In this document: one piece after another, positions 20,009-39,314 of the stretch
How positions within the stretch are numbered: the stretch's first letter is position 1
Layout of the letters: every line of letters begins with the position of its first letter
DNA from: Patescibacteria group bacterium
GTDB taxonomy: Bacteria > Patescibacteriota > Minisyncoccia > UBA6257 > UBA9933
Direction: 5' to 3'
NCBI GenBank assembly: GCA_030017615.1
Contig: JASEIG010000001.1
Coordinates: 22,518-86,517 of the forward strand
DNA: 64,000 nucleotides
Notes under the pieces: model-generated
The model's input: the letters and a program-made list of their open reading frames with translations, nothing else
What the model was told of the DNA's origin: nothing
Databases searched by the model: none
Position numbers and translations under genes: made by a program

Positions 20009-20732
20009 ATTATTCGTTCTTAGAAATAGAATAAATGAAGCTGATGATATAGCGACTTTTAAATTTATGCCGGTTAAAGGAAAAAATTTACCTTTTATAG
20101 CCGGACAATTCGTGAATGTTTATTTTTTAGATAATCGTTGCGGCGGACAAGGCAAGCCGTATTCTATTTCAAGCATTCCAAGCGATAAATTTTTAAGCAT
20201 TACCGTTAAAAAAATCGGGAAATTTTCGGGCGCTTTGCATGATTTGAAAATAGGAGAAAGGGTGAAAATAACCGAACCACAAGGATATTTTTGTCCGGAA
20301 AATCAAATGAAAAATATTGTTTTTTTAGCGGGCGGTATCGGCATTACCCCCTTTTACAGCGTGATAAAAGATTATTTTAGCAAAAAAGCCGATAAAAATC
20401 TTTTTCTTTTTTATGGTAATAAAACAAAAAAAGACGCCGTTTTCTTAAAAGAATTGAGCGACTTGGCGAAAAGTTGGGAAAGATTGAAAATAATCAATGC
20501 TTTCACGCGGGAACCTATTTTACCGTCTGACAAAAAGTGCGTGACAATATCAATGAATGTAAAAAACGAATTTAAGAGAATTGACGTTAAAATGCTTAAA
20601 AAACATTTGAAAAATTTAAACAATAAGCATTATTTTATTTGCGGTTCAATCGGTTTTGTCACCGATTTATGGAAAGAGCTTAAAGAAAACCAAATTAAAG
20701 AAGATTATATCAGAGTGGAATCGTTTTATTAA
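19989..20732 (+). CDS. Ferredoxin-NADP reductase-like FAD/NAD(P)-binding oxidoreductase
   Basis: KPYSISS (RxYS-type FAD motif) and VFLAGGIGITPFYSV NAD-binding GxGxxP motif. No extra Fe-S domain. Confidence 0.6.
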   Translation: MDPQKNKLFVLRNRINEADDIATFKFMPVKGKNLPFIAGQFVNVYFLDNRCGGQGKPYSISSIPSDKFLSITVKKIGKFSGALHDLKIGERVKITEPQGYFCPENQMKNIVFLAGGIGITPFYSVIKDYFSKKADKNLFLFYGNKTKKDAVFLKELSDLAKSWERLKIINAFTREPILPSDKKCVTISMNVKNEFKRIDVKMLKKHLKNLNNKHYFICGSIGFVTDLWKELKENQIKEDYIRVESFY

Positions 20733-21009: not shown

Positions 21010-22083
21010 ATGCTCATATTTTCAAAAAAATTTTTTAAAAAAATATCTTCGGTAGTTCCAAATCGTTTTAAGGAGCTTGTTCCGAAACATGTTAAAAATT
21101 TTTTAAGGGGAAAATATATTTCGCGAACAGTAATTATAGACATTGTAGGAACGTGCAATTTAAAGTGTCCATCTTGTCCTAATGGAAACGTTGAAAAAAG
21201 AAACCCAGTCGGGATGATGAATTTGGGTATATTTAATAAGATGTTAGACAAAGTTGCGCTTGAGCATCCAGGGACAACAGTGGCAATTTATAATTGGACT
21301 GATCAATTTCTTCATCCTCAAATAATTGAATTTATAAAAGCTATTCATAAACGTGGTTTTAAATCGCGATTAAGTAGTAATCTCAATTTGCTCCCCGTTA
21401 ATCTTAAAGAATTTGCGGAAACAAATCCAGGCGGAATTACCATATCGCTTTCCGGTTTTACACAAAAAGTTTATGAAATTGCTCATAAGGGAGGCGATAT
21501 TGAAATTATCAAAGAAAATATGCGCAAATTAAGCATGGCTTTGCGAGAAGCAAATGTGTCCACAAGCGTGAATGTGTATTACCATAAATATAAACATAAT
21601 TTGGACGAGGTAAAATTAATGGAAGATTTTGCAAAATCTTTAGGATTTGGTTTTGGAGCGGATTGGGCGTATTTTATGCCAATTGAAGGGGTTAAAAGAT
21701 ATATTGATGGCAATGCTCCCGAGGAAGATGTTAAATTTATAGAAACAAATCTGGCTTTAGATATTAAGAAGGCTGTTGAAGTAGCTAAAGCTTTTAAGGA
21801 TGAGCCGTGCCTTTTTCCGTCAACATTGCTCACGATTGATTGGCGGGGACAAGTCCAATTATGTTGCGGCGTTTATGATTCAAGCCTGTTTTCTTTGGGA
21901 TCTTATCTGGATATGCCATGGGAAATTATTGAGAGCAGATTAAAAAATCACCCTTTTTGCAATGAATGCAAAAAGAATGGACTTCATACCTATATTTCCT
22001 GGAGTAGCAATGAAAAAATTCGTCCAATATATAAAAAAATTGCTGAAGAAAGCATTAAAAATAACAACACAAAAAACAAATGA
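21010..22083 (+). CDS. Radical SAM protein (possible twitch/SPASM-like C-terminus)
   Basis: IVGTCNLKCPSCPNG CxxxCxxC. C-terminal CCGVYDS...HPFCNECKKNG Cys cluster. Confidence 0.65.
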   Translation: MLIFSKKFFKKISSVVPNRFKELVPKHVKNFLRGKYISRTVIIDIVGTCNLKCPSCPNGNVEKRNPVGMMNLGIFNKMLDKVALEHPGTTVAIYNWTDQFLHPQIIEFIKAIHKRGFKSRLSSNLNLLPVNLKEFAETNPGGITISLSGFTQKVYEIAHKGGDIEIIKENMRKLSMALREANVSTSVNVYYHKYKHNLDEVKLMEDFAKSLGFGFGADWAYFMPIEGVKRYIDGNAPEEDVKFIETNLALDIKKAVEVAKAFKDEPCLFPSTLLTIDWRGQVQLCCGVYDSSLFSLGSYLDMPWEIIESRLKNHPFCNECKKNGLHTYISWSSNEKIRPIYKKIAEESIKNNNTKNK

Positions 22084-22766
22084 AAATTACTTTATTTATT
22101 CCAACCTTTAATGAAATACAGGGAATTAAAATGATTATGCCCAGAATAAAAAAAGAATGGGTTAATGAAATTTTAATTATTGATGGAAATTCGACTGATG
22201 GGACCAAAGAGTGGTTGGAACAAAGTGGCTATAGAGTAGCAACTCAAAAAGAACCCGGACTTTTGTCTGCCTGGTGGCAGGGGTTTGAAACGGCAACTGG
22301 TGACATTATAATCTCGTTTAGTCCGGATGGCAATTCGGTCCCGGAGTTGATACCTGCTTTAGTCGATAAAATAAAAGAAGGTTATGATATAGTTATCGCT
22401 TCTCGTTATAAAGACGATGCAAAAAGCGATGATGACACTTGGATGACGGGCTTAGGCAACTTTATGTTTACTAAAATAATTAATCTTCTTTTTGGCGGAC
22501 ATTATACTGATGCTTTGGGTATGTACCGCGCTTTTAGAAAAGAATTGATCACCTCATTGAAATTAGATAATGATAAAAATGAAATTTTTGAAGTGCTTTT
22601 GTCTATTAGAGCCGCCAAGCAAAGGTTGAAAATCGCCGAAATTCCCGGAGACGAACCGCCGAGAGTTGACAAAGAAGACAGTCGGGCGCACCCGGGCATT
22701 TGGGGTAAATTTAAAGGGGGCTTGAAAATGATTTCTATTATTATTAAGGAATTTTTTAAGAGTTGA
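22080..22766 (+). CDS. Glycosyltransferase family 2 (dolichyl/polyprenyl-phosphate sugar synthase-like)
   Basis: ITLFIPTFNE...IIDGNSTDGT...GDIIISFSPDG...ASRY motifs of DPM1/GtrB-like GT2. 4-bp start/stop overlap with the upstream rSAM gene. Confidence 0.7.
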   Translation: MKITLFIPTFNEIQGIKMIMPRIKKEWVNEILIIDGNSTDGTKEWLEQSGYRVATQKEPGLLSAWWQGFETATGDIIISFSPDGNSVPELIPALVDKIKEGYDIVIASRYKDDAKSDDDTWMTGLGNFMFTKIINLLFGGHYTDALGMYRAFRKELITSLKLDNDKNEIFEVLLSIRAAKQRLKIAEIPGDEPPRVDKEDSRAHPGIWGKFKGGLKMISIIIKEFFKS

Positions 22767-22782
22767 TTTATTATGAAAAATT

Positions 22783-23190
22783 CAGAATACAAATTAATGA
22801 GTGAGATTGAGGATGACCATTGGTGGTGGTTAGGACGAAACAAAATAATTGAAGCGGTTATAAAAAATCAGATTGATTTTTCAGACAGAGTTATTAATAG
22901 CGGATGTTGGTTGCGGTTATGGGACAAATATCCTAATGCTTAAAAATATGGAAATGTTACCGCTTTAGAATTAAACGATGAGGCGATTTCCGAGCTTAAG
23001 GAAAAATTTGGAGGATAAATTAATATTATAAAGTGGAAATCTCCAGAGAAAATTAATAGAAAATTTGATTTAATTTTACTCACTTAACACAATTTTTAAA
23101 AACATTCTTTTTATAGGAGCGAAATTAATCCGAAAAATTTCACTGCCATTTGGCATAGCTATGGTTATTCTTATTCAGAAACATTATCGC
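22783..23190 (+). pseudogene. Decayed class I SAM-methyltransferase pseudogene (multiple frameshifts)
   Basis: Frame 1 gives MKNSEYKLMSEIEDDHWWWLGRNKIIEAVIKNQIDFSDRVINS and stops. A second frame continues as DVGCGYGTNILMLKNM (motif I). A third gives GNVTALELNDEAISELKEKFGG, then KFDLILL. No intact ORF. Confidence 0.5.
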
Positions 23191-23210
23191 GATTAAAAAA
23201 GGTGTTGTGT

Positions 23211-24854
23211 TTATTTTCGGACAAATACATAATAATCCGGCCACTCCATCAAGTTTTCATTCACTATCACTTTGTTTTCTTTAACATTTTTTGATATCAG
23301 ATATTTTGCCAATGTTTTTAAATTGAATTGCGGGAATGCAAATGTGCTTTTTGTTTGGAAAATTAGCGTGTAATTTTGATTTAATAAATTAAGATATTCG
23401 TCTGTTACGTTAACTTTTGTGCTTTGCGGTAAAATAACCAGATAGTCTCCGGATTTTATTTCGTCAATATTGTCATTTTTAAAAACGGTAAAAGGGACTG
23501 TGATTTTTGAAATAAGAGGAAGCGGTGTTTCGGTTCTAACATTTGATTTAAGGTCAAATTGATTATCTGAGAGTCCTTTGAATCGTAGAAATTCCGCCAG
23601 GACAAAATAAGTCCCTCTTCCCGTGCCGCGGTCAACTCCGCCCATAAAAATATTGGCTTGCTTTGAAGAGTTTTTTGAATTTATATCCCTGATTATAAAA
23701 TCGATACTGTTGTTGAAGTTGATTGGCAGGTATTTGTAATAAGTCAAGTAATGAAGTCCTGAGGGAATGACGTTGATGATAAATAATAAGGCGGTTATTC
23801 CTCCAAAAAATTTCCAAAAATTTATGCTTAGTTGATACTGATTAAAAAAATAAATCAACACAGGTAGGGTTAAAACATAAGCCGGCAACAAGTAGTAGGG
23901 ACCGTACATATTCAGGGCGAAAAAGGCCGCAACATAAAAAAAAGCCGATATTAGCAGGGAATCCATGACGGGTTCCACCCTTTCTTTTTTGAAAATTATT
24001 TTAAATAATCTCCATAAAGCCAGTGGCAGCAATACCAAGATAAGAAGAGGATCGGAAAAAAGCGCGTAGTTTAAAATGTTTTTTACAGAAACTATCCAAT
24101 CAAACGAAGTGTTCCCGTAAATATTTGCACCGCGGTTAATGTAGGTGTAAAAATAATAAAAAATGAGATAAATTAAGGAACTTAACAGCAGAAGTCCATC
24201 AAAGATTTTTAACTTCAAATCAGCGGCTTTGATTGAAAAAATCAGATGGAAAAAAGCGAAAGCGCCAATGGCAATAAAGGCAGTTTCTTTGTAATAAATT
24301 GCAAGATTGACAAAAATAAGACTTAAAAGAATAAAAGTTATTTTTTTATTTTTTATATAGTTGAGATAGAAAAATAAAAAAATCGTCAAAAAAAAGATAA
24401 CATTTCTTTCGTTCATCTGCATTCTAAACCAGGAGATTGCAAAACCTGGGGTTAAGAAAAGCAAAACAGAAGCACTATATATAAGTAATTTATTTTTTGT
24501 AAATAAGGAAAGTATTTTTACAATCAGTATTGAAAGAATAACAAGTTGAATTGCATGATAGAAATAGTACCAAAAAGGATCGGGTGATTTGGAAAAAATT
24601 CCGAATAAATTGTATTCCATTGCGGCAAGCGGGGTAAATCGTCCCATTGTGGCTGCGTCATAATAAGGAAAATCAGAAGAATAATAAAGAATCGGTTTGC
24701 CTGATTGAAGAGTGCGGAGAAAAATAAAATCATCGGTCGGAGCCAGTTGTGGGCTTATGAGAAGAAGAATTACATAAGCGCAGACAAAAACCAGAAATCC
24801 GGAAAGAAACAAATCATTTTTGAGCGCATTAAGTGTTTTTTTAAAGATATTCAT
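23211..24854 (-). CDS. GT-C fold polytopic membrane glycosyltransferase (ArnT/PMT/YkcB-like)
   Basis: About 12-13 TM helices. APTDDFIF acidic motif in the first extracytoplasmic loop. Size and topology match 4-amino-arabinose/mannosyltransferase-type GT-C enzymes. Confidence 0.5.
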   Translation of the reverse strand: MNIFKKTLNALKNDLFLSGFLVFVCAYVILLLISPQLAPTDDFIFLRTLQSGKPILYYSSDFPYYDAATMGRFTPLAAMEYNLFGIFSKSPDPFWYYFYHAIQLVILSILIVKILSLFTKNKLLIYSASVLLFLTPGFAISWFRMQMNERNVIFFLTIFLFFYLNYIKNKKITFILLSLIFVNLAIYYKETAFIAIGAFAFFHLIFSIKAADLKLKIFDGLLLLSSLIYLIFYYFYTYINRGANIYGNTSFDWIVSVKNILNYALFSDPLLILVLLPLALWRLFKIIFKKERVEPVMDSLLISAFFYVAAFFALNMYGPYYLLPAYVLTLPVLIYFFNQYQLSINFWKFFGGITALLFIINVIPSGLHYLTYYKYLPINFNNSIDFIIRDINSKNSSKQANIFMGGVDRGTGRGTYFVLAEFLRFKGLSDNQFDLKSNVRTETPLPLISKITVPFTVFKNDNIDEIKSGDYLVILPQSTKVNVTDEYLNLLNQNYTLIFQTKSTFAFPQFNLKTLAKYLISKNVKENKVIVNENLMEWPDYYVFVRK

Positions 24855-24899
24855 CCAATAATTATAACCGAAACAAGATTAACCGCAAACAGAAATCGT

Positions 24900-24942
24900 T
24901 TGACAAACCCGTCTTTTATGTTAGATATTAGGTAGTACAAAG
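24900..24942 (+). promoter_or_regulatory. Promoter/leader cassette copy A: TTGACA-N17-TAGATA + GGTAGTACAAA box
   Basis: ttgacaaacccgtcttttatgttagatattaggtagtacaaag, about 50 nt upstream of the fcl-like start. Same architecture recurs at 26010, 27905, 29228, 31899 (and a degenerate copy at 30305). Confidence 0.5.
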
Positions 24943-24994
24943 ATCGTTTTATAAGGCGAATAAAATAAAATAAGAATGAAAGGAGCAGAAAACC

Positions 24995-25933
24995 ATGTTA
25001 GACAGAAATGATAAAATTTATATTGCCAATCATGCGGGATTATTGGGTTTTGCGCTGGAGAAGGCGTTGAGAGGTAAAGATTTTGGGAATCTTTTGATAA
25101 AAGCAAAGGAAGATTTGGATTTATTGGATGATAAATCAGTAGCAGAATTTTTTCAGAAAGAAAAACCGAATCATGTTTTTTTACCGAGTTATAAAAGCGG
25201 CAGCATTCAGGCGAATATTAAATATCCGGCTGAATTTATTTATGAAAATTTAGTTACTCAAAATAACGTTATTCATAACGCTTATTTGAGTGGCGTCAAA
25301 AAACTTTTGTTTGTTGGCGCTTCGTGCGTGTATCCCAAAGATTCACCCCAACCAATGAAAGAGGATTATTTGATGACCGGGGAAATTGAGATCACTAATC
25401 AGGCATATTCAGTGGCAAAAATAGCCGGTATCGAAATGTGTAGGGCGTATAACAAACAATATGGAACAAAGTTTATTTCGGTAATTCCAGCGACTCTTTA
25501 TGGTCCGAACGATCATTTTGATCTGGAAAATTCCCATGTCCTTTCCTCGTTAATAAGAAAATTTCACGAAGCAAAGATAAAAAATCAAAGTGAGGTTATT
25601 TTATGGGGGAGCGGGAAACCAAGAAGGGAATTTTTATATTCCGACGATCTGGCTGATGCCTGTGTTTTTTTGATGAGCGGAAATTTCAACGTTGATTTGG
25701 TAAATATCGGAAGTGGCGAAGATTTTGAAATAAAAGAGCTGGCTGAAAAGGTAAAAAATGCCACCGGATTTAACGGAAAAATAATATGGGATATTTCAAA
25801 ACTTGATGGTGTTATGAAGAAATTATTGGATTCAAGTATGATTAAAAATGTCGGATGGAAGCATAAAGTTGACATTGACGATGGTATCAAAAGAATGTAT
25901 GAATGGTTTGTTGTAAATTGTGCGAAGAGATGA
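24995..25933 (+). CDS. fcl: GDP-L-fucose synthase family (Fcl/ColC-like GDP-4-keto-6-deoxy-sugar 3,5-epimerase/4-reductase)
   Basis: YPAEFIYENL, KLLFVGASCVYPK, TNQAYSVAKIAGIEMC, LYGPNDHF..NSHV and WGSGKPRREFLYSDDLA align closely to E. coli Fcl. Second Fcl-family gene in the window, so the exact substrate (fucose vs colitose vs 6-deoxyheptose) is open. Confidence 0.75.
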   Translation: MLDRNDKIYIANHAGLLGFALEKALRGKDFGNLLIKAKEDLDLLDDKSVAEFFQKEKPNHVFLPSYKSGSIQANIKYPAEFIYENLVTQNNVIHNAYLSGVKKLLFVGASCVYPKDSPQPMKEDYLMTGEIEITNQAYSVAKIAGIEMCRAYNKQYGTKFISVIPATLYGPNDHFDLENSHVLSSLIRKFHEAKIKNQSEVILWGSGKPRREFLYSDDLADACVFLMSGNFNVDLVNIGSGEDFEIKELAEKVKNATGFNGKIIWDISKLDGVMKKLLDSSMIKNVGWKHKVDIDDGIKRMYEWFVVNCAKR

Positions 25934-25963
25934 TAATAAGAAGTCTATTCAATAAGTTAATTT

Positions 25964-25997
25964 TAATCCCGGGACGATTCTAATCCCGGGTTTTTTA
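25964..25997 (+). terminator. Rho-independent terminator (aatcccggg..cccggg + T6)
   Basis: Inverted repeat CCCGGGA/TCCCGGG with a 9-nt loop, followed by TTTTTT. Lies after the fcl-like stop. Confidence 0.55.
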
Positions 25998-26009
25998 TAT
26001 GTTAATAAT

Positions 26010-26052
26010 TTGACAGGATTGTTGTTTTCTATTAAATATTAGTCAGTACAAA
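26010..26052 (+). promoter_or_regulatory. Promoter/leader cassette copy B: TTGACA-N17-TAAATA + TCAGTACAAA box
   Basis: ttgacaggattgttgttttctattaaatattagtcagtacaaa. Downstream leader (aagcgaataaaaatgaataaggagga) is also similar to copy A. Confidence 0.5.
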
Positions 26053-26091
26053 TTGCTATATTAAGCGAATAAAAATGAATAAGGAGGACTT

Positions 26092-26907
26092 ATGAAGCCT
26101 GAAATATTGGATTTTTTAACGAAAAAAGCATTGTGGGTAAGAAGAGAAACAATAAAAATTCATGGCATTGCTCCTGAAACAAGACTGGCTTCGTCGCTGT
26201 CTGATGTTGAGATTTTCGTGTCTTTGTATTACGGAAAAATTTTGAATTTTAATCCAAAAAAGCCGAAATGGTTGGGCAGGGATCGTTTTATAATCAGCAA
26301 AGCCCATGGGGCAATTTCTTTGTATCCGATATTGGCGGACTTCGGTTTTTTTGAAAAAAGCGAACTAACAAGAGTTTGCCAAAAGGGATCTTTTTTGGGA
26401 GGAATTCCAGATACACAAATTTCAGGGTTTGAAACCGTTAACGGAGCTTTGGGTCATGGTCTTGGAGTCGCTTGCGGATCAGCTATTGTTTTAAAGTCAA
26501 AGGGTCTAAAAGTTTTTGTTTTGATGGGTGACGGAGAGTTGTTTGAAGGCGCGGTTTGGGAAGCTGTAATGTTTGCTTTTCAGCATAAGCTTGGAAATCT
26601 AGTTTTGATCATTGATAATAATAAGATTTCCATGCTTGATTATTGCAAAAACATTATCAATTTAGACCCATTGGAAAAAAAATTTCAGGCGTTTGGATGG
26701 AAAGCTGTTGTTGTGGATGGTCATAATATTGATAAATTGGCAAATTCTTTAAAGGATTTAAAGGCGGATAATAGTGATTATCCTAAGGTGTTGATAGCAA
26801 ATACCGTCAAAGGTAAGGGCGTTTCTCAACTTGAAAATGATGTTTTGTGCCATGTAAAATCTTTAAATAAAGAGGAGATTGCCAGAGCAATGGAGGAATT
26901 GAAATGA
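26092..26907 (+). CDS. tktA: Transketolase, N-terminal (TPP pyrophosphate-binding) subunit
   Basis: GHGLGVACGSA...VLMGDGELFEGAVWEA TPP-binding motif (GDG...E). 271 aa, split-transketolase form. Confidence 0.8.
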   Translation: MKPEILDFLTKKALWVRRETIKIHGIAPETRLASSLSDVEIFVSLYYGKILNFNPKKPKWLGRDRFIISKAHGAISLYPILADFGFFEKSELTRVCQKGSFLGGIPDTQISGFETVNGALGHGLGVACGSAIVLKSKGLKVFVLMGDGELFEGAVWEAVMFAFQHKLGNLVLIIDNNKISMLDYCKNIINLDPLEKKFQAFGWKAVVVDGHNIDKLANSLKDLKADNSDYPKVLIANTVKGKGVSQLENDVLCHVKSLNKEEIARAMEELK

Positions 26908-27848
26908 ATATAAAACCAAGGACAATGAGAGACTCTTTTATAGAAGCTGTCTGCGAAAGAATGGATGAAAATAAAAACATTTTTTTCGTAACAGCCGATT
27001 GCGGTGCTCCGGCTTTGGACAAGCTGAAGGAAGATTTCAGCGACAGATTCATAAATGTCGGAATTGCCGAACAAAATTTGATAAATGTCGCGGCAGGACT
27101 TGCTTTGGAAGGATGCGTCGTTTACGCCTATGCGATCGCCCCTTTTCTTACCATGAGGGCTTATGAGCAGATAAGGCAAAATTTATCCATTGCTTCACAA
27201 GTAAGGCCTGTTAACGTAAATCTTATCGGTGTTGGAGCGGGGATGAGTTATGTTGTTTCCGGGCCGACCCATCATTGTTTTGAGGATATCGCGATTATGA
27301 GGCTTATGCCGAATATGACGGTATTTTCTCCAAGTGATTGGAAATTAGCCGCTGATTTTGCCGGTTATACAATTCATAAAAGCGGACCCAAGTATTTGCG
27401 GTTTGATGGGAAAACATTGCCTTTAATTTACAAAGACACAGACAACATTGTTTTGGAAAACGGTTTTTATAAACTGTTGAATGGCGATAAAGTTTGTATT
27501 ATTTCCACCGGATACATGACGCATAAGGCGCTGAAAGTTGCAAGCGAATTTCAAAATGTAGGCGTCATAGACGTTTTTATACTCAAACCGCTGAATGAAA
27601 AATTGCTGTTTGAAGCCATTAAAAATTACCGGCATATCATCACCGTCGAGGAAACATTCATAAATAACGGCGGGTTGGATTGTCTGGTGTCAAAAGTCAT
27701 CCGGGATAACCGGCCAAATATCGGTTTTGACAATCTGGGTATCAGTGATAAGCATATTTTTGAGCTTGGAAACAGGGATTATCTACATAAGCTTAACGGG
27801 TTGGATGAGGAAAATATTAAAGAAATTATTTGGGAAAATAATTGGTAA
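26904..27848 (+). CDS. tktB: Transketolase, C-terminal (pyrimidine-binding) subunit
   Basis: Transketolase Pyr domain (IAEQNLINVAAGLALEG) and a C-terminal domain. 4-bp overlap with the N-terminal subunit gene. Confidence 0.8.
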   Translation: MNIKPRTMRDSFIEAVCERMDENKNIFFVTADCGAPALDKLKEDFSDRFINVGIAEQNLINVAAGLALEGCVVYAYAIAPFLTMRAYEQIRQNLSIASQVRPVNVNLIGVGAGMSYVVSGPTHHCFEDIAIMRLMPNMTVFSPSDWKLAADFAGYTIHKSGPKYLRFDGKTLPLIYKDTDNIVLENGFYKLLNGDKVCIISTGYMTHKALKVASEFQNVGVIDVFILKPLNEKLLFEAIKNYRHIITVEETFINNGGLDCLVSKVIRDNRPNIGFDNLGISDKHIFELGNRDYLHKLNGLDEENIKEIIWENNW

Positions 27849-27863
27849 CAATTTAGAGTTGTA

Positions 27864-27896
27864 GCAGGCCCCGGCATTTTGTCGGGGCTTTTTTAT
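27864..27896 (+). terminator. Rho-independent terminator (gccccgg...ccggggc + T-run)
   Basis: GC stem with a 9-nt loop followed by TTTTTTATT, directly after the transketolase C-subunit gene. Confidence 0.6.
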
Positions 27897-27904
27897 TGGT
27901 TAGA

Positions 27905-27948
27905 TTGACGACCAAATCATTTTCTGTTAAATATTTGTTAGTACAAAA
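27905..27948 (+). promoter_or_regulatory. Promoter/leader cassette copy C: TTGACG-N17-TAAATA + TTAGTACAAAA box
   Basis: ttgacgaccaaatcattttctgttaaatatttgttagtacaaaaa, followed by a small hairpin ccgcttttgcgg and RBS aaaggagagg. Confidence 0.5.
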
Positions 27949-27990
27949 ACCGCTTTTGCGGCAAAAATTGAAAAAGGAGAGGACAATAAT

Positions 27991-29160
27991 ATGGATATCA
28001 GATATTATCTTGCGGAAGATACGATTGATAAGCGGGATATTGACGCGTTAATCCGGTGGTTAGGGACTTGCCCGCGTCTGACTAAAGGAAAGCTAACTCC
28101 GGAATTTGAAGAAAAATGGAGCAATTGGATTGGAATGAAGTATTCGGTTTTTTGTAATTCTGGTTCATCGGCAAATTTGTTGATGTATTATACTTTGCTG
28201 ACTTCCGGAGTTCTTAGAAATAAAAAGGTTATCGTTCCGAGTGTCGGCTGGGTGACGACAATCGCGCCGGCAATCCAATTCGGTTTTGAACCGATAATGT
28301 GCGAGGCGGATCCCGATACTTTCAGTCTGGATTTGAACCATCTCCAGGAGCTTCTTAAAAAACACGATCCTTCAACGGTTATATTGGTCCAAGTTTTGGG
28401 AGTTCCTCACAAGATGGATGAAATCATGAAGCTTAAGGAAAAGTACGGTTTTATTCTACTTGAGGATGCTTGTGCCGCAATGGGTTCTTCGTACCACGGA
28501 AAGAAAGTCGGATCTTTCGGGGATATGAGTAGTGCCTCGTTGTATTTTGGACATCAGATTTCAACTATTGAAGGTGGATTGGTTTCCACTAACAATAAGG
28601 AATTTTATGATGTTCTACTTATGATTAGGAGCCACGGGTGGAGTAAGGATTTAGATCAAGAAACCCATAATCAGCTTGTTCAAAAACATAACATAGATGA
28701 TTTTCACTCCCCGTTTGTCTTTTATGAGCTTGGTTTTAATCTCCGTTCGACCGACTTAAACGCTTTTTTGGGAATAAGACAAATTGATAAAATGGAATGG
28801 CTGGTTTCACGGAGATGGGAAAACCATTGTTTTTACAAAGATCTTTTGGATAATAAATTTTATTCCCAGAAGTATGACGCGGATTCAATTGTTTGCAGTA
28901 TTCATTTTGGAATGCTGGCAAATAATGGAGATGAACGAAAAAAAATCATAAAAGCTCTAGAAAAGAATGGTATTGAAACGCGTATTTTTTCCGCAGGCAA
29001 TCTCGGACTTCACCCGTTTTGGTATGAACGGTATGGAAAATTTTCCGCGCCGATGGCGGACAGAATTCATCATACTGGTTTGTTTCTTCCTCAAAATCCG
29101 TCGCTTAAACCGAAAGATATCAGATTTATTTCGGAAGTGATATTAGATAGTGTGAAGTAA
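27991..29160 (+). CDS. DegT/DnrJ/EryC1-family PMP-dependent sugar 3-dehydratase (ColD / CDP-6-deoxy-hexulose 3-dehydrase E1-like; His replaces the PLP lysine)
   Basis: Family fold is evident. In the conserved SFHxxKxITTGEGG block the sequence reads SLYFGHQISTIEGG, with His at the Lys position. This is the hallmark of ColD (GDP-4-keto-6-deoxymannose 3-dehydratase) and E1 dehydrases. Confidence 0.65.
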   Translation: MDIRYYLAEDTIDKRDIDALIRWLGTCPRLTKGKLTPEFEEKWSNWIGMKYSVFCNSGSSANLLMYYTLLTSGVLRNKKVIVPSVGWVTTIAPAIQFGFEPIMCEADPDTFSLDLNHLQELLKKHDPSTVILVQVLGVPHKMDEIMKLKEKYGFILLEDACAAMGSSYHGKKVGSFGDMSSASLYFGHQISTIEGGLVSTNNKEFYDVLLMIRSHGWSKDLDQETHNQLVQKHNIDDFHSPFVFYELGFNLRSTDLNAFLGIRQIDKMEWLVSRRWENHCFYKDLLDNKFYSQKYDADSIVCSIHFGMLANNGDERKKIIKALEKNGIETRIFSAGNLGLHPFWYERYGKFSAPMADRIHHTGLFLPQNPSLKPKDIRFISEVILDSVK

Positions 29161-29163
29161 ATT

Positions 29164-29200
29164 GCATCCCCGCGCCTGAAAAGGCCGCGGGGATTTTTTG
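29164..29200 (+). terminator. Rho-independent terminator (atccccgcg...cgcggggat + T6)
   Basis: Perfect 9-bp GC-rich inverted repeat followed by TTTTTTG, after the dehydratase stop. Confidence 0.65.
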
Positions 29201-29227
29201 TTGCAATGTTAATAAATTTTTATAAGT

Positions 29228-29270
29228 TTGACTATAAGTTTATTTCTTGTTAAATATTTAACAGTATAAA
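29228..29270 (+). promoter_or_regulatory. Promoter/leader cassette copy D: TTGACT-N17-TAAATA + ACAGTATAAAA box
   Basis: ttgactataagtttatttcttgttaaatatttaacagtataaaa, followed by a small hairpin atcacttttaagtgat and RBS agggagg. Confidence 0.45.
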
Positions 29271-29313
29271 ATCACTTTTAAGTGATATTAAAATTTAATA
29301 TAGGGAGGTTGAT

Positions 29314-30249
29314 ATGTTTAAAATTTTAATAACAGGAGCGGCAGGATATTTGGGTTCAGTGTTGGTGCCGGAGCTTTTAATCAAGGGTTATACAGTTGTT
29401 GCTATTGATAATTTTCTTTTTAATCAGACATCTCTTCTGGATGTTTGCTGTTACAAGGAATTAATAGTGATTCGCGGAGATGCAAGAGATAAAAAATTAA
29501 TTTCCAAACATCTTAAAGGAGTCGATTTTATAATTCCTTTGGCTTGTATTGTGGGAGCGCCTGCATGTAAAAAAGATCCGGAAGCGTCTAAAAGCACTAA
29601 TCTGGACGCGATTAAGATGATTCTTGAACTTCGCGAAGAAGACCAGAAGATAATTTATCCGAATACCAACAGCGGTTACGGTATAGGCGAAAAAGAAAAA
29701 TATTGCGACGAAAAAACGCCGCTTAATCCCATCTCGTTTTATGGAAAACTCAAGGTTGAGGCGGAAAAAGACATTTTGAGAGCGGGAAACGGAATTACTT
29801 TAAGACTGGCTACTGTATTTGGAATCAGTCCGCGTATGCGTTTGGATCTTCTGGTAAATGATTTTGTATATCGGGCAGTATACGACCGTTTCGTTGTTCT
29901 TTTTGAATCGCATTTCAAGCGGAATTACATTCACGTAAGAGACGTTGCCCGGGCTTTCCTGCACGCGATGGAAAATTTTGATGCAATGAAAAATGAGGCG
30001 TATAATGTCGGTTTGAGTGATGCAAATCTCAGCAAGATGGAGTTGTGCGAAAAAATTAAAAAACAACTACCTGAGTTTTATTTTGTTGAAGCCGAGATCG
30101 GCAAGGATCCGGACAGACGGGATTACATTGTCAGCAATGAAAAGATAGAAGGAACCGGTTTTAAAACGTTGGTTTCGCTCCAGGATGGAATTGCGGAACT
30201 GATAAAGGGATATCAGGTTATCAAGAGAACGCAGTTTGCGAACGTTTGA
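29314..30249 (+). CDS. NAD-dependent epimerase/dehydratase family protein (nucleotide-sugar 4,6-dehydratase/epimerase/reductase)
   Basis: ILITGAAGYLGSVLV Rossmann motif. YGKLK catalytic YxxxK. 311 aa extended SDR. Confidence 0.65.
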   Translation: MFKILITGAAGYLGSVLVPELLIKGYTVVAIDNFLFNQTSLLDVCCYKELIVIRGDARDKKLISKHLKGVDFIIPLACIVGAPACKKDPEASKSTNLDAIKMILELREEDQKIIYPNTNSGYGIGEKEKYCDEKTPLNPISFYGKLKVEAEKDILRAGNGITLRLATVFGISPRMRLDLLVNDFVYRAVYDRFVVLFESHFKRNYIHVRDVARAFLHAMENFDAMKNEAYNVGLSDANLSKMELCEKIKKQLPEFYFVEAEIGKDPDRRDYIVSNEKIEGTGFKTLVSLQDGIAELIKGYQVIKRTQFANV

Positions 30250-30267
30250 TTGATTTGTTTTTATTAT

Positions 30268-30305
30268 AAGCTCCTTATAGAATTTTCCGTAAGGAGCTTT
30301 TTTAT
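30268..30305 (+). terminator. Rho-independent terminator (aagctcctta...taaggagctt + T-run)
   Basis: 10-bp inverted repeat with an 11-nt loop followed by TTTTTTATT. Confidence 0.6.
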
Positions 30306-30376
30306 TGACAAAAGTCAAATTAATTAACAATATATGAGCAGTTCTTAATCCAATAAAATACGAAATGGAGGATTAA

Positions 30377-31876
30377 ATGAAACAGACCGATGTATTATTT
30401 GTTGTTCCCGGAAACCATAAAAAAGTGTTTCAGGGTCTTGGAAATGATTTTGCGGCGATTGAATCGCCGGCTCAAACTGGATTATTTGCCAATTATTTAA
30501 AAATGATTAAAGGTTGTTCTGTCGGTGTTATTGATATGCCCGCATTGGGCGATTTATCCTGTAATGCGGCGGCAGAAATAGTTTTTGCTTATAATCCAAT
30601 TCTTGTTGTAATGATGGTTTATGGGCATCAGCCTTCGGCGTCCACTCAAAATATGCTGGCGGCAAGATCAGCTTGTGAAGCCATCAAAGAAAAGATGCCC
30701 GATGCCAAAATACTAATGACTGGAACTCATCCCGCGGCATTGCCTAAACGAACTCTTATGGAAGAACCAATTGATTTTGTGTGCGATGGTGAGGGACTTG
30801 TGACAATCTATGAAACATTGCAGATGTTAAAGTCCGGGACTGACGATTTTAGTAAGGTAAGTAATTTATGGTATTGGCAAAATAGAATGCCGAAAAGATC
30901 AAAACTTTCGGCGGCGCTTATTACCAATCTTAACTCCGAATTTCTTCACGGAATTGCGTGGGATTTATTGCCAATGGAAAAGTATCGGACTCATAACTGG
31001 CATTGCTTTGATAATATTGAAAATCGTTCGCCTTACGCGGCGATACATACCTCTTTTGGTTGCCCATTTTCTTGCGTTTTTTGTTGTATCAACGCTCCGT
31101 TTGGAAAATCGTCTTATCGGATGTTTTCTCCGGAACATGTGATTTACGAAATAGACATTCTTGTCAATAAATATAATGTCAGAAATATAAAGTTTGTTGA
31201 TGAGTTGTTTGTTTTAAACGAGGAACACGTGAACGGGATTTGCGATTTGATAATCCAGCGCGGTTATGATTTGAACATCTGGGCTTATGCCAGAGTTGAT
31301 ACGGCAAAAGAGCGTCTGCTGGATAAAATGAGGCGAGCCGGAATCAGATGGCTGGCTTTAGGCATTGAATCCGGCAGCAAACATGTCAGAGACGGCGCCA
31401 AAAAGAAATTCAGCAATGAAGACGTAATTAATGTGGCAAGGAAAATCCAGAATGCTGGAATTTACGTCGGGGCAAATTATATTTTCGGTTTGCCTGACGA
31501 CACCTTGGAAACGATGCAAGAAACATTTAATCTTGCTTTAGAAATTAACGCTGAATGGGCGAACTTTTATTGCGCGATGGCTTATCCGGGCTCAAAACTG
31601 TATAACATCGCAAAGAAAAAAGAATTACCTTTACCAGACGACCCTGACGGTCCGGGATGGATAGGTTATTCCCAATACTCTTACGAATGTTTACCGCTTC
31701 CGACAGAAAATTTGTCGGCGGCAGATGTTCTGCGTTTTAGGGACAACGCGTTTCAGGTCTATTTTACAGAACGTCGTTATCTGAAAATGATAAGCGAAAA
31801 ATTTGGAAAAAAGGCCGTGGAACATATCAGGTTAATGACATCCAGTTTTCCACTAAAAAGGAAAATATTGGGATGA
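30377..31876 (+). CDS. B12-binding domain radical SAM protein (class B rSAM-like; candidate sugar C-methyltransferase or rearrangement enzyme)
   Basis: N-terminal B12-binding-like Rossmann region. FGCPFSCVFCC CxxxCxxC motif. Sits inside the deoxysugar cassette series. Confidence 0.7.
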   Translation: MKQTDVLFVVPGNHKKVFQGLGNDFAAIESPAQTGLFANYLKMIKGCSVGVIDMPALGDLSCNAAAEIVFAYNPILVVMMVYGHQPSASTQNMLAARSACEAIKEKMPDAKILMTGTHPAALPKRTLMEEPIDFVCDGEGLVTIYETLQMLKSGTDDFSKVSNLWYWQNRMPKRSKLSAALITNLNSEFLHGIAWDLLPMEKYRTHNWHCFDNIENRSPYAAIHTSFGCPFSCVFCCINAPFGKSSYRMFSPEHVIYEIDILVNKYNVRNIKFVDELFVLNEEHVNGICDLIIQRGYDLNIWAYARVDTAKERLLDKMRRAGIRWLALGIESGSKHVRDGAKKKFSNEDVINVARKIQNAGIYVGANYIFGLPDDTLETMQETFNLALEINAEWANFYCAMAYPGSKLYNIAKKKELPLPDDPDGPGWIGYSQYSYECLPLPTENLSAADVLRFRDNAFQVYFTERRYLKMISEKFGKKAVEHIRLMTSSFPLKRKILG

Positions 31877-31881
31877 ATTAC

Positions 31882-31920
31882 GGAGGATTTCGCGAAGTTT
31901 GCGGAATCCTCTTTTATTTT
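31882..31920 (+). terminator. Rho-independent terminator (gaggatttcgc...gcggaatcctc + T-run)
   Basis: 11-bp imperfect inverted repeat followed by TTTTATTTT. Overlaps the -35 of the next cassette promoter. Confidence 0.55.
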
Positions 31921-31943
31921 AAATATTCTGTGTTAGTATAAAT
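31899..31943 (+). promoter_or_regulatory. Promoter/leader cassette copy E (weaker -35 TTGCGG; AAATAT + TGTTAGTATAAA box)
   Basis: ttgcggaatcctcttttattttaaatattctgtgttagtataaa upstream of the GHMP kinase gene. Confidence 0.35.
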
Positions 31944-31984
31944 TATTATTCATAATTGAAGATTAAATTTCCAAACCTTAATTT

Positions 31985-32998
31985 ATGGTTATTACGCGAA
32001 CACCTTTTAGAATTTCTTTTTTCGGAGGGGGAACTGATTATCCTGTTTGGTATAAAAAGAACGGCGGAGCGGTGCTTTCCGCGTCAATTGATAAATATTG
32101 TTATATTACTTGCAGACATTTGCCGCCGTTTTTTGAGCATAAGATCAGGGTTGTTTGGTCAAAAATAGAAAGCGTCAAACATCATGATGAAATTCAGCAT
32201 CCATCGGCAAAAGAATGTTTGAAGCATCTTAATTTTGATAAAGGCATTGAAATACATCACGATGCCGATTTGCCGGCGCGCTCGGGTCTTGGTTCAAGTT
32301 CGGCCTTTACCGTCGGTCTTCTTAATGCCTTGTATGCTTTGAACGGAAAAATGGTGACTAAAAGGCAGTTGGCGCTTGATGCCATTCATGTTGAACAGGA
32401 AAGAATAAAAGAAAACGTTGGCTCACAGGACCAGACAGTCGCGGCTTTCGGTGGGTTCAATAAAATTGAATTCGGCGCTCCACATAAAATAAATGTTTTA
32501 CCCATTGTTTTAAAACATGACAGATTAAATGATCTTCAGAATCATTTGATGATGTTTTTTACCGGTTTTTCAAGAAATGCTTCGGATATTGCGGCGGAAC
32601 AGATTAAAAACACTCCTAAAAAATTTTCGGAATTAAAAGCCATGCATGAGATGGTGGAAAAAGCGATAGGCATACTTAACAGCGGTAAAAATCTTGACGA
32701 GTTCGGCAAACTTCTGGATGAAAACTGGAAAATAAAAAGAGGCCTTACTTCCCAAATAACCAATTCTTCAATAGATGAAATTTATGAAGCCGGATTGAAA
32801 GCCGGAGCCACCGGCGGTAAATTATTGGGGGCCGGAAGCGGAGGATTTATATTATTTTTTGTGAGACCGGAAAATCAGCAGAAAGTTAAAGACAGGTTAA
32901 AAAATCTTCTTTATGTTCCGTTTAAATTTGAAAATTCCGGGAGCCAGGTGATTTATTATGCTCCGCACGGAAATTTTCATGACAGTAACTCAAGCTGA
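31985..32998 (+). CDS. GHMP-family sugar kinase (HddA-like D-glycero-D-manno-heptose 7-phosphate kinase / sugar-1-kinase)
   Basis: PARSGLGSSSAFTVGLLNAL GHMP ATP-binding motif. About 337 aa. Paired with a downstream sugar-1-P nucleotidyltransferase. Confidence 0.7.
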   Translation: MVITRTPFRISFFGGGTDYPVWYKKNGGAVLSASIDKYCYITCRHLPPFFEHKIRVVWSKIESVKHHDEIQHPSAKECLKHLNFDKGIEIHHDADLPARSGLGSSSAFTVGLLNALYALNGKMVTKRQLALDAIHVEQERIKENVGSQDQTVAAFGGFNKIEFGAPHKINVLPIVLKHDRLNDLQNHLMMFFTGFSRNASDIAAEQIKNTPKKFSELKAMHEMVEKAIGILNSGKNLDEFGKLLDENWKIKRGLTSQITNSSIDEIYEAGLKAGATGGKLLGAGSGGFILFFVRPENQQKVKDRLKNLLYVPFKFENSGSQVIYYAPHGNFHDSNSS

Positions 32999-33063
32999 TT
33001 TAATTATTTAGGTCTTATGTAATCATTCGGATTCTTTAATAAAAAAATAATATGAGGAGATAA

Positions 33064-33360
33064 TGACAAAGATTGATATCGGGCCGAATGTTTCTTCCTG
33101 GGCAAAAAAAGAGGATGATTTTTCAGTCCAAACGCTCAAAGATGAATTTCTTAAGGAAGCCAAAAAGTTTCTGCCTGATTTGGAGACCGATGATTTAAAA
33201 TGAGCGTACAGCGGATTGAGAGCAAAAATTCGGCGAGGAAGATTTTATTATCAGGAAAGAAGCGGGAAATCCAACACTCATTAATCTGATAGGAATTGAA
33301 TCGCCCGGATTTACCGCCGCGTTTGCCATTGGCGAATACATGGCGGAAATGGTAGATTAA
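33064..33360 (+). pseudogene. Remnant of the C-terminal end of an FAD-dependent oxidoreductase (LhgO/GlpA-like), disrupted by frameshifts
   Basis: Three frames together give ...PDLETDDLK / AYSGLRAK / DFIIRKEAGNPTLINLIGIESPGFTAAFAIGEYMAEMVD*. This matches the C-terminal motif (GIESPGLT..AIAE) of FAD-dependent oxidoreductases. No upstream catalytic domain is present. Confidence 0.4.
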
Positions 33361-33427
33361 AAAAATATTCCAACGTAATGTTGAGGTATTTCTTGCCAAA
33401 AAGGAATAAAAGTTTTATAAATAATTT

Positions 33428-34156
33428 ATGAACAAGCAACGGCAAAACAGGCATTTTAACGATATTGATGTTGTAATTTTATGCGGTGGTCAAGGGACAA
33501 GAATAAAGCCTGTGATTGGTAATAAGCCAAAAGTACTTGCCGATATAAACGGAAAGCCGTTTTTGGAAATTCTTATTAACCAGCTTGTTTTAAACGACTT
33601 TAAAAAAATTATATTGAGTGTTGGGTATTTAAAGGAGCAGATAAAAGATTATATTCAGAACGTATTTAATAATAATCAGGTAGAAATTAGTTTTTCAGAA
33701 GAGGAAACTATGCTTGGAACCGGAGGCGCGGTAAAGAAAGTAAAAGATTTGATTAAAAACCACCACTTTTTAGTTGTGAACGGAGATACTTATTTTCCGA
33801 TTGATTTTAACCGATTTTTTGCGAATTACTTATCCAATAAAGCGCTGGTTTCAGCGGTAATCGCCAGAATTTCGGATGTTTCCGATTATGGAAGCGTAAA
33901 ATTAGATGACAATGGTAGAATAATTAGTTTTAATGAAAAAAGCGTTAATGAAAATGACTTGGTAAATGCGGGAATGTATTTTATGTCCAAAGAAATTTTT
34001 AATTTGATGCCAAGTAATGACGTTTTTTCTCTTGAATATGATTTATTTCCTAAAATTTTAAATAACAAATGCCATGGGTTTATTGGCGAGGGAGAATTAA
34101 TTGACATTGGAACGCCGGAAAAATATGAAAAAGCAAAAATTTATTTCAAAATTTAA
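33428..34156 (+). CDS. Sugar-1-phosphate nucleotidyltransferase (HddC/RfbF-like guanylyl- or cytidylyltransferase)
   Basis: VILCGGQGTRIKPVIGNKPKVLADINGKPFLE N-terminal NTP-transferase signature. 242 aa. Confidence 0.7.
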   Translation: MNKQRQNRHFNDIDVVILCGGQGTRIKPVIGNKPKVLADINGKPFLEILINQLVLNDFKKIILSVGYLKEQIKDYIQNVFNNNQVEISFSEEETMLGTGGAVKKVKDLIKNHHFLVVNGDTYFPIDFNRFFANYLSNKALVSAVIARISDVSDYGSVKLDDNGRIISFNEKSVNENDLVNAGMYFMSKEIFNLMPSNDVFSLEYDLFPKILNNKCHGFIGEGELIDIGTPEKYEKAKIYFKI

Positions 34157-34160
34157 TTGT

Positions 34161-34958
34161 ATGAAATTTCCAATTAGCGCAATTATTTTAACTTATAACG
34201 AGGAATTAAATATAGATAATTGTTTGAAAAATATAAACGATTTATGCGATGAAATTTTTATTGTTGATTCTTACAGTACGGACGGCACGAAACAAATTGC
34301 AAATCGCTATGGCGTTAAATTCATTCAACACTCTTTTAAAAATCAAGCGGACCAATTTAACTGGGCGCTTGATAATTTACCGATTAAAAATGAATGGATT
34401 TTGCGGTTGGATGCGGATGAATATCTGACTGAAGAATTAAAAAATGAAATAATTAAAAAGATAAAAAACATACCAAATGATGTGGTTGGATTTTATTTAA
34501 ATCGGAGAGTTTATTTTATGGGAAAATGGATAAAACATGGCGGTTATTATCCGACATGGATTTTGCGGTTATTCAGGCGCGGAAAGGCGCGTTCGGAGCA
34601 AAGGGAAATGGACGAGCATATTGTTTTATTTGAGGGCAGGGCGGGAAAATTTGAAAATGATTTTATTGATGATAATAAAAAAGATTTAACTTGGTGGATT
34701 GAGAAACATAATAATTACGCTTTGCGTGAAGCGCGGGAGGCGTTATTAGGAAATTATGGCCGAGGCATGAAAAAAAAATATTATAAGTTGCCGTTATTCT
34801 GTCGTGTTGTCGCTTATTTTATTTATCGTTATTTTTTCCGCTTTGGTTTTCTTGACGGCAAAGAGGGGTTGATATTTCATTTTTTACAAGGATTTTGGTA
34901 TAGATTTTTAGTGGACGCAAAGATATATGAAAAGTTAAGAATTAATAAAAAGGCGTAA
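34161..34958 (+). CDS. Glycosyltransferase family 2
   Basis: ISAIILTYNEELNIDNCL...IVDSYSTDGT and a LDADE (DxD) motif. ATG at 34161 is preferred over the TTG at 34101, which would overlap the upstream gene. Confidence 0.65.
   Translation: MKFPISAIILTYNEELNIDNCLKNINDLCDEIFIVDSYSTDGTKQIANRYGVKFIQHSFKNQADQFNWALDNLPIKNEWILRLDADEYLTEELKNEIIKKIKNIPNDVVGFYLNRRVYFMGKWIKHGGYYPTWILRLFRRGKARSEQREMDEHIVLFEGRAGKFENDFIDDNKKDLTWWIEKHNNYALREAREALLGNYGRGMKKKYYKLPLFCRVVAYFIYRYFFRFGFLDGKEGLIFHFLQGFWYRFLVDAKIYEKLRINKKA

Positions 34959-39310: not shown

Positions 39311-39314
<4 letters not shown>
37911..39314 (+). CDS. manC: Mannose-1-phosphate guanylyltransferase / mannose-6-phosphate isomerase (bifunctional ManC/CpsB type with C-terminal cupin)
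   Basis: [22 protein letters not shown]-terminal NTP-transferase motif. C-terminal cupin HRLEN...EVQ. 467 aa. Confidence 0.8.

Follow-up and report, generated by a model that had tools for sequence, protein, structure and literature searches.

Which sugar is made by the genes at positions 24995–34156 of a surface-glycan locus from a Patescibacteria group bacterium? The window analyzed here is a stretch of 64,000 nucleotides (contig JASEIG010000001.1 of GenBank assembly GCA_030017615.1, positions 22,518 to 86,517 of the forward strand), and all positions are counted from its first letter. A preliminary description, made from the sequence alone, saw in these genes a deoxy-sugar pathway separate from the manC-gmd-fcl set of the same window and predicted GDP-colitose or, alternatively, a 6-deoxyheptose. 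Comparison with related loci supports a second, distinct sugar-nucleotide pathway and leads us to a different product. We read the region, with accessory genes from 22080 to 34958, as a conserved and laterally spread cassette for a nucleotide-activated (probably GDP-activated) 3-deoxy, C4-acyl-branched heptose of the cell-surface glycan, and we put the probability of this reading at roughly 0.6. The sugar is most likely one that has not been described so far, and no published description of the cassette was found in the literature searched.

Dehydratase and heptose-type enzymes

The starting point is the DegT-family protein encoded at 27991–29160, which carries the motif SLYFGHQISTIEGG at residues 183–196. 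Among solved structures, it is closest to those of ColD (2gms, E 4e-52); E1 (E 1e-39) comes next, ahead of true aminotransferases. The query His188 aligns on ColD His188, in place of the Schiff-base Lys, and this is the position altered in the deposited chains 3b8x (His to Asn) and 2r0t (His to Lys). When the window protein was aligned with ColD and 81 relatives from other genomes, His188 was invariant in all 83 sequences, so a sequencing artefact is excluded and the histidine reported earlier at the pyridoxal phosphate (PLP)-lysine position is genuine.

The [2Fe-2S] cluster of E1 is bound by a Cys motif that includes CxC. No CxC motif is present in the 83-sequence alignment, in which C161, also found in ColD, is the sole invariant Cys, and the protein scores 199 with the RfbH model, whose cut-off is 423. 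The FNR-like protein encoded at 19989–20732 has FAD- and NAD-binding domains only; because it has no ferredoxin domain it does not amount to an E3/AscD equivalent, and no similar gene was seen in the related loci. An E1-type mechanism was rejected, there being neither an Fe-S Cys motif nor a conserved E3 partner. Judged by its homology, the DegT protein is a ColD-type, E3-independent 3-dehydratase, as the earlier proposal of a 3-deoxygenating enzyme would have it.

The extended short-chain dehydrogenase/reductase (SDR) encoded at 29314 points to the kind of sugar on which this dehydratase would act. It matches PDB entries 6vo6 and 6vo8, which we take to be structures of Campylobacter jejuni Cj1427, at E 1.7e-117, with 179 of 308 residues identical (58%) in an ungapped alignment, and its Tyr-x3-Lys element, YGKLK, is aligned with YGIDK. 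A sequence search with 6vo6 returned a 313-aa C. jejuni protein at 96%, which fits that assignment. A structure paper on Cj1427 is cited in PMC10680097. Cj1427 is a GDP-heptose C4-dehydrogenase that retains the 6-OH, is specific for heptose, and has a tightly bound NADH that is recycled by alpha-ketoglutarate in a ping-pong manner (PMC10680097). A C3-dehydratase of C. jejuni HS:5, using PLP and L-glutamate, turns the Cj1427 product into GDP-D-glycero-3-deoxy-4-keto-heptose in an in vitro assembly of the two enzymes that was presented among novel GDP-heptose modifications (PMC10680097). As the 29314 product is Cj1427-like and not Gmd-like, we dropped the earlier suggestion that it and the Fcl paralogue might be a DmhA/DmhB-like pair.

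The kinase and the nucleotidyltransferase also belong to heptose families. The three top PDB matches of the kinase (3k85, 4usk, and 4n3o; E 1e-34 to 1e-40) are heptose kinases, among which 4usk, named only 'sugar kinase' in its PDB entry, is presumably WcbL, and the kinase is 53–74% identical across the cassette loci described below. The best model for the nucleotidyltransferase is HddC, and the next best is mannose-1-phosphate guanylyltransferase. Because the two enzymes are HddA/HddC-like, the cassette substrate would probably be GDP-heptose and the product not colitose; in this respect, the GDP-heptose branch that the preliminary description had considered for them agrees with their best relatives and models.

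Conservation of the cassette and its thiamine diphosphate enzyme

A locus scan with one genome per GTDB species returned 80 loci. They come from about 17 Patescibacteria (including Saccharibacteria), 13 Elusimicrobia, about 27 Nitrospira or Nitrospirota (including the cultured Nitrospira sp. BLG_1), several Deltaproteobacteria, and a few Acidobacteriota, with single metagenome-assembled genomes (MAGs) of Binatia, Hydrogenedentes, Verrucomicrobiota, Oligoflexia, and Nanoarchaeota. The nanoarchaeotal locus (L054, JAUYPG010000004.1) has a dehydratase (64% identical), a Cj1427-like SDR (64%), a kinase (63%), and an E1 alpha/beta pair, which points either to a binning error or to interdomain transfer between ultra-small organisms of groundwater.

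The window proteins were run by tblastn against all loci, and 51 loci with a dehydratase at least 56% identical, a Cj1427-like SDR, and a kinase were taken as informative. The Cj1427-like SDR adjoins or lies near the dehydratase in 63 of 74 loci, at 55–76% identity. An enzyme dependent on thiamine diphosphate (ThDP) is found in 50 of the 51 informative loci, the sole exception being on a short contig of 11.9 kb; an extra SDR is present in 47/51 and the nucleotidyltransferase in 40/51. All-against-all clustering of open reading frames (ORFs) from 84 loci added no phosphatase, isomerase, or other gene to the widely conserved members of the cassette.

These associations bear directly on GDP-colitose, for which Gmd would supply GDP-4-keto-6-deoxymannose, the His-dehydratase would act as ColD, the Fcl paralogue would act as ColC, and the other genes would be unrelated neighbors. 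ColD is the best solved relative of the dehydratase, catalytic His included, manC and gmd are inside the window, the Fcl-like SDR encoded at 24995 could in principle be ColC-like, and its orthologue adjoins gmd beside the cassette in three Patescibacteria loci (L011, L013, and L069). However, the dehydratase is 33% identical to ColD as opposed to 56–79% within its own clade, whose members occur in many phyla and reach 64–79% even in very distant lineages. Relatives from loci with gmd and fcl only are a separate group (29–48%), comprising a distinct His-DegT protein in L072, L073, and L082 (41–48%) and the PLSDB plasmid matches, which tblastn with the dehydratase found at 29–33% and four of which adjoin a 'GDP-L-fucose synthase'; that plasmid search yielded no annotated cultured example of the cassette. 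The cassette dehydratase is instead tied to the Cj1427-type SDR, the heptose-type kinase, and the ThDP enzyme in the proportions given above, the window gmd is 10 kb away with three other genes between, and four of the cassette genes have a promoter-like motif of their own in common. We therefore consider colitose, the product first predicted, very improbable.

What the ThDP enzyme does is the central question for the acyl-branched heptose that we favor. In the window, it is a split transketolase (TK), whose N subunit has as its best PDB match 6yak, the split TK of C. hydrogenoformans (E 4e-52), and whose C subunit has 6yaj (E 2e-34). The pair retains the GDG...N motif for ThDP and metal along with equivalents of His66, His261, and His473 of Escherichia coli TK (EcTK). 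Five other EcTK residues are replaced (His26 by Arg, His100 by Ile, His461 by Gly, Asp469 by Ser, and Arg520 by Gly), and His461 is replaced in 15 of the 15 cassette transketolases aligned. In TK, His461 and Arg520 bind the substrate phosphate and Asp469 contacts the C2-OH of the acceptor. His100 contacts a donor hydroxyl; DXP synthase has Phe at this position, and TK variants with Leu or Phe there accept pyruvate (PMC7661550; PMC11997939).

The other loci fill the same slot with enzymes of different classes. Pairs resembling E1 alpha/beta (E1_dh with Transket_pyr/Transketolase_C) occur in 28 loci, enzymes resembling acetolactate synthase (ALS) and YerE (TPP_enzyme_N/M/C) in 14, a split TK in four, and a TK together with an E1 pair in four. 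Cores that are closely alike can have different classes: a Saccharibacteria locus (L009) whose core is 72–76% identical to that of the window has an ALS-type enzyme, and the ALS, E1, and TK classes all occur among the Nitrospira loci alone. Two ThDP pairs, a TK and an E1-like one, or even three are found together in L022 (two TK pairs and one E1 pair), L053, L061, and L083, which points to alternative branches or to C-C bond formation in more than one step. In most of the 14 loci with an ALS/YerE-type enzyme (for example, Nitrospira locus L046, 14767–16167), this enzyme is accompanied by a class I/II aminotransferase of about 400–470 aa, and 20 of the 51 informative loci have an aminotransferase match; the aminotransferase might act on the branch ketone or convert an amino acid into the 2-oxoacid donor.

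The preliminary description had suggested that the split TK could supply sedoheptulose-7-phosphate, and an unbranched modified heptose of the kind found in C. jejuni capsules (a GDP-3-deoxy- or 3,6-dideoxy-heptose) would need no other role for it. The HddA/HddC-, Cj1427-, ColD-, and Fcl-like genes do match the enzyme types of GDP-heptose modification in C. jejuni (PMC10680097), a bacterium with a small genome must obtain sedoheptulose-7-phosphate in some way, and the transaldolase and SIS isomerase in deltaproteobacterial loci resemble precursor supply. Yet in 42 of 51 loci the slot holds an E1 alpha/beta-like or ALS/YerE-like enzyme, for which formation of sedoheptulose-7-phosphate is not known, and locus L001 has a transaldolase as well as an E1-like pair. 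The window TK itself lacks the residues that bind the phosphate (His461, Arg520), the acceptor C2-OH (Asp469), and the donor hydroxyl (His100). Because five pocket residues are lost and the slot is elsewhere filled by enzymes resembling pyruvate dehydrogenase E1 or ALS/YerE, sedoheptulose-7-phosphate formation by the window TK appears unlikely, and we regard an unbranched heptose as a rather unlikely product.

Transfer of an acetyl-type unit from a 2-oxoacid is more likely to be the activity of the window TK, and with the donor-hydroxyl residue His100 replaced by Ile, the donor is probably pyruvate. The three classes that occupy the cassette slot are exactly those that a 2025 review names as ThDP enzymes reported or proposed to acyl-branch keto-sugars (PMC12247030; PMC9306805). 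YerE-like enzymes act on the lipopolysaccharide sugars yersiniose, erwiniose, and caryophyllose (PMC12247030; PMC9306805), alpha-KADH2 heterodimers act on antibiotic sugars (PMC12247030), and split-gene TKs, of which 13 have been predicted, exclusively in Streptomycetes, and none characterized, are proposed to act in the miharamycin and amipurimycin cases (PMC12247030). For the lipopolysaccharide sugars, the acceptor is a 3-deoxy-4-keto sugar provided by a 3-dehydrase (PMC9306805), and the pairing of a 3-dehydratase with a ThDP enzyme in the window is the same pairing.

From these comparisons, we propose the following order of steps for the branched heptose. The HddA/HddC-like kinase and nucleotidyltransferase would make GDP-heptose, as their family-level homology suggests, and the Cj1427-type SDR, a close homologue, would oxidize C4 while keeping the 6-OH. 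The ColD-type His-dehydratase, whose homology is diagnostic of the catalysis, would then remove the 3-OH by pyridoxamine phosphate chemistry without an E3 reductase to give GDP-3-deoxy-4-keto-heptose. Comparative genomics and the active-site changes point to a fourth step in which the split TK-like enzyme would add an acyl unit, probably acetyl from pyruvate, to the C4 ketone and so create a tertiary alcohol, much as YerE does for yersiniose. In the last step, where the chemistry is a guess, the Fcl-family SDR would reduce or epimerize the sugar and the B12-type radical SAM enzyme would methylate it or perform another radical reaction.

The acyl unit could also be placed elsewhere, with the radical SAM enzyme or an oxidase making an aldehyde or ketone at C6–C7, the ThDP enzyme extending the chain there, and the Fcl-like SDR reducing C4. 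Fcl-family enzymes normally reduce C4 of GDP-4-keto sugars, the use of Cj1427 in place of a 4,6-dehydratase preserves the C6/C7 diol, the radical SAM domain finds its best PDB match in the diol dehydratase AprD4 (6fd2, E 2e-15), and ThDP carboligases generally prefer aldehyde acceptors (PMC12247030). The AprD4 match, however, is weak (60 bits) and confined to the radical SAM core, and the seven of 51 cassettes without a radical SAM gene still have a ThDP enzyme. The pairing of 3-dehydratase and ThDP enzyme also mirrors the logic of yersiniose, erwiniose, and caryophyllose, in which the acceptor is a 3-deoxy-4-keto sugar (PMC9306805). On balance, we think chain elongation unlikely.

Several points weigh against a C4-branched heptose. 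ThDP enzymes readily use aldehyde acceptors, and chain elongation at an oxidized C7 in place of C4 branching is possible. The Fcl-like SDR, if it reduced C4 as its relatives do, would compete with branching at that carbon. The scores for HddA and HddC are both under the NCBIfam equivalog cut-offs (Table 1), as is that of the Fcl-like SDR, so the exact substrates of the three enzymes are not fixed by them, and an octose or mannose instead of a heptose is a possible start. Neither GmhA nor GmhB was found in the window by the searches described below, and deltaproteobacterial loci add a small transaldolase and a SIS isomerase. Since gmd and manC are 4–6 kb downstream of the cassette, the dehydratase could also meet GDP-4-keto-6-deoxymannose. 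The radical SAM gene is absent from some cassettes, as detailed below, and keto-sugar branching by a split transketolase has never been shown (PMC12247030).

Late steps, gene order, and neighboring genes

The Fcl-like SDR encoded at 24995 has as its best PDB matches 7anh, 7m13, and 7anc, deposited as 'GDP-L-fucose synthase' and presumably C. jejuni heptose C4-reductases, with a score about equal to that for E. coli Fcl. In Nitrospira, Elusimicrobia, and Deltaproteobacteria, the cassette regularly includes an SDR recognized by the Fcl model only, and in the window the 24995 product fills this role. It probably reduces or epimerizes the modified heptose or its acyl branch, the candidate reactions being reduction of the branch carbonyl (as by YerF), reduction of C4, and epimerization. 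The manC-gmd-fcl set at 37911–41244, described earlier as canonical, is so for manC (480 bits) and gmd (524 bits), each above its cut-off. Its Fcl-like gene at 40312, adjoining gmd, reaches 292 bits with model NF047922, which is less than the 24995 gene that had been called the paralogue, and neither of the two reaches the cut-off of 500 bits.

The gene list first drawn up for 24995–34156 is correct in that all of its named ORFs are present on the plus strand, and it had overlooked the B12-binding radical SAM gene at 30377–31876. The CxxxCxxC element of this protein is CPFSCVFC, residues 229–236, and its B12-binding domain scores 27.9 bits, below the cut-off of 32.1. Its NCBIfam matches are weak (HpnJ, 145 of 578; BchE, 120 of 481; and PhpK), with none near a cut-off. 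Orthologues co-occurring with the dehydratase are about 40–67% identical. The gene is present in 44/51 informative loci and missing from 7/51, which marks it as an accessory tailoring step. In Nitrospira loci, the protein is 50–54% identical to the window copy whichever ThDP class accompanies it, which suggests that it acts on a constant part of the molecule. Its reaction, C-methylation or another radical step, is a guess.

One speculative extension of the branched heptose is that the radical SAM enzyme does more than methylate and that the products are a new family of heptose-derived sugars with nine or more carbons. It could, for example, join C7 to the carbonyl carbon of the C4-acetyl branch, and this ring closure would give a carbocyclic sugar of the caryose type. 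Caryose is a 4,8-cyclo-3,9-dideoxy-nonose that is 3-deoxy, has a quaternary C4, and retains the 6- and 7-hydroxyls. This is the pattern that Cj1427, ColD-type, and ThDP chemistry would set up; nothing relevant to caryose biosynthesis was found in the literature searched, and we hold the idea to be doubtful. If it were true, exchanging one ThDP class for another would change the substituent and so make a surface antigen more diverse in Patescibacteria, a DPANN archaeon, Elusimicrobia, and Nitrospira.

Three further radical SAM genes are found in the island, at 7305–8600, 15991–17049 (minus strand), and 21010–22083, the first of which carries a B12-binding domain, and the number of radical enzymes is unusually high for a polysaccharide locus. 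IscS/NifS-like, NifU-like, and FNR-like flavin reductase genes are located mid-island (18351–20732) and may serve the surrounding Fe-S radical SAM enzymes.

The coordinates of the cassette and its borders are collected in Table 1.

Table 1. Genes and candidate regulatory elements of the cassette and its borders (window positions)
Feature	Position	Strand	Detail
Promoter-like motif TTAAATATT-N4-AGTAYAAA	24921-24941, 26032-26052, 27927-27947, 29250-29270	+	4 matches in 64-kb window
Polyprenyl-phosphate sugar synthase-like glycosyltransferase family 2 (GT2) protein (AglJ/ArnC/Dpm type), associated, not core	22080..22766	+	TIGR04182 104 bits
547-aa protein, probably membrane-bound	23211..24854	-	Conserved cassette neighbor in Patescibacteria
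Fcl-family extended SDR (epimerase/reductase)	24995..25933	+	NF047922 405 bits, cut-off 500
ThDP enzyme, PP-domain subunit (split TK N part)	26092..26907	+	Transketolase_N 118 bits
ThDP enzyme, Pyr and C-terminal-domain subunit (split TK C part)	26904..27848	+	Transket_pyr and Transketolase_C
Terminator-like hairpin after TK genes	27866..27890	+	11-pair stem and T run
Predicted ColD-type PMP/PLP-dependent sugar 3-dehydratase	27991..29160	+	DegT_DnrJ_EryC1 225 bits
Cj1427-type extended SDR	29314..30249	+	PDB 6vo6/6vo8 match
B12-binding-domain radical SAM protein, 499 aa	30377..31876	+	Radical_SAM 65 bits; CxxxCxxC
Terminator-like hairpin after radical SAM gene	31882-31912		14-pair stem and T run
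HddA/WcbL-family GHMP kinase (anomeric kinase of heptose phosphate)	31985..32998	+	NF049969 HddA 153 bits, cut-off 600
HddC-like sugar-1-phosphate (probably guanylyl) transferase	33428..34156	+	NF049965 HddC 168.5 bits, cut-off 300
GT2 glycosyltransferase overlapping nucleotidyltransferase 3' end	34101..34958	+	Glycos_transf_2 68 bits

The genes for the two TK subunits overlap by 4 nt. The four copies of the promoter-like motif each end 40–54 nt before the start codon of 24995, 26092, 27991, or 29314, with 0.34 copies expected by chance and none of 100 shuffles reaching four, and a TTGAC box is found about 20 nt upstream of three of the four. The motif is absent from all related loci searched and is thus specific to this genome, where it looks like a shared promoter or operator.

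The gap between the kinase and nucleotidyltransferase genes (32999–33427) is, at 429 bp, the longest in the cassette; it has no ORF longer than 82 aa and no evident GmhB-like remnant. The window yielded no GmhA, GmhB, or transaldolase, with about five ORFs of at least 150 aa (between 44968 and 63341) compared only by tblastn with one SIS and one TAL query and no GmhB query used, so that the earlier statement about a missing GmhA-like isomerase is borne out. As the isomerase GmhA and the phosphatase GmhB are needed for the heptose precursor, they must be encoded elsewhere.

Some flanking genes travel with the cassette. The GT2 gene at 34101, whose product possibly uses the cassette product, has an orthologue (68% identical) at the corresponding place of Patescibacteria locus L080. 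Copies of the GT2 encoded at 22080 (46–63% identical) adjoin the cassette in Patescibacteria and Elusimicrobia, in 12 of the 51 informative loci. The 547-aa protein has no Pfam or NCBIfam match, and neighbors 41–64% identical to it are found in L005, L007–L010, L076, and L080. In Elusimicrobia, the GT2 is accompanied by a PMT-type protein in its place, and a comparison of these two proteins showed no similarity. The conserved GT2 and the proteins beside it hint at delivery through a lipid-linked sugar.

The cassette belongs to a large glycan-biosynthesis island that fills the window from position 1 to about 50000 and that holds glycosyltransferases, methyltransferases, radical SAM enzymes, manC, gmd, and an Fcl-like gene as well as a Wzx-type flippase, a polyprenyl glycosylphosphotransferase, and an LCP-family transferase. 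A NodU-like carbamoyltransferase gene (35316–37061) is just 3′ of the cassette. L042, L053, and L083 also have copies (about 40% identical) close to their cassettes, and O-carbamoylation of the glycan is therefore possible. On the minus strand at 11257–13788, the island has a nucleoside-phosphorylase-family gene and a gene for a 563-aa protein with a phosphoribosyltransferase domain.

Relation to known sugar pathways

We would place the cassette with the known acyl-branched deoxy-sugar pathways, among which it represents a new form. If this is correct, a widespread pathway is present in nitrite-oxidizing Nitrospira (including a cultured strain), Elusimicrobia, many Patescibacteria, and a Nanoarchaeota MAG, and it combines two schemes already known, C4 oxidation plus 3-deoxygenation of a heptose and ThDP-dependent acyl branching. 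Split-gene transketolases in a keto-sugar context would then reach beyond Streptomyces. The replacement of three ThDP classes by one another in one pathway would be a natural experiment of use for the biocatalysis of tertiary alcohols. For ultra-small symbionts, the cassette indicates an elaborate surface glycan that may matter for attachment to a host.

The C. jejuni GDP-heptose pathway uses the same families for activation, C4 oxidation, 3-deoxygenation, and reduction (PMC10680097). In its natural setting, the C. jejuni C3-dehydratase follows a 4,6-dehydratase, and the combination with Cj1427 was made artificially (PMC10680097). The C. jejuni pathway is without a ThDP or B12-radical SAM enzyme, and the window cassette is without a separate C3/C5 epimerase. 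The GDP-colitose pathway (ManC, Gmd, ColD, and ColC) shares with the window the ColD fold, the catalytic His, independence from an Fe-S cluster and E3, and an Fcl-family SDR, but ColD is only 33% identical and the window gene is linked to Cj1427-like, kinase, and ThDP genes in place of gmd and colC.

A parallel in logic is found with yersiniose A, erwiniose, and caryophyllose, which are made in the same order: a 3-dehydratase gives a 3-deoxy-4-keto sugar, ThDP carboligation follows, and an SDR (YerF) performs the reduction (PMC9306805). The Nitrospira and Saccharibacteria cassettes with a TPP_enzyme_N/M/C enzyme share even the ALS/YerE type with these pathways. The yersiniose-type pathways, however, use a CDP-hexose and an Fe-S E1 with E3, while the window has a probable GDP-heptose with its C6 and C7 hydroxyls retained and a ColD-type dehydratase; their ThDP enzyme is YerE-like, while that of the window is a split TK, to which a B12-radical SAM step is added. 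The actinomycete alpha-KADH2 enzymes (aldgarose and the kibdelomycin enzyme KbDH) and split TKs represent the same two ThDP classes, encoded beside enzymes that form keto-sugars (PMC12247030). The window TK and the actinomycete split TKs are alike in class and in their split-gene architecture, but the actinomycete examples belong to secondary-metabolite clusters, whereas the cassette is part of surface-glycan loci of uncultivated phyla and of Nitrospira.

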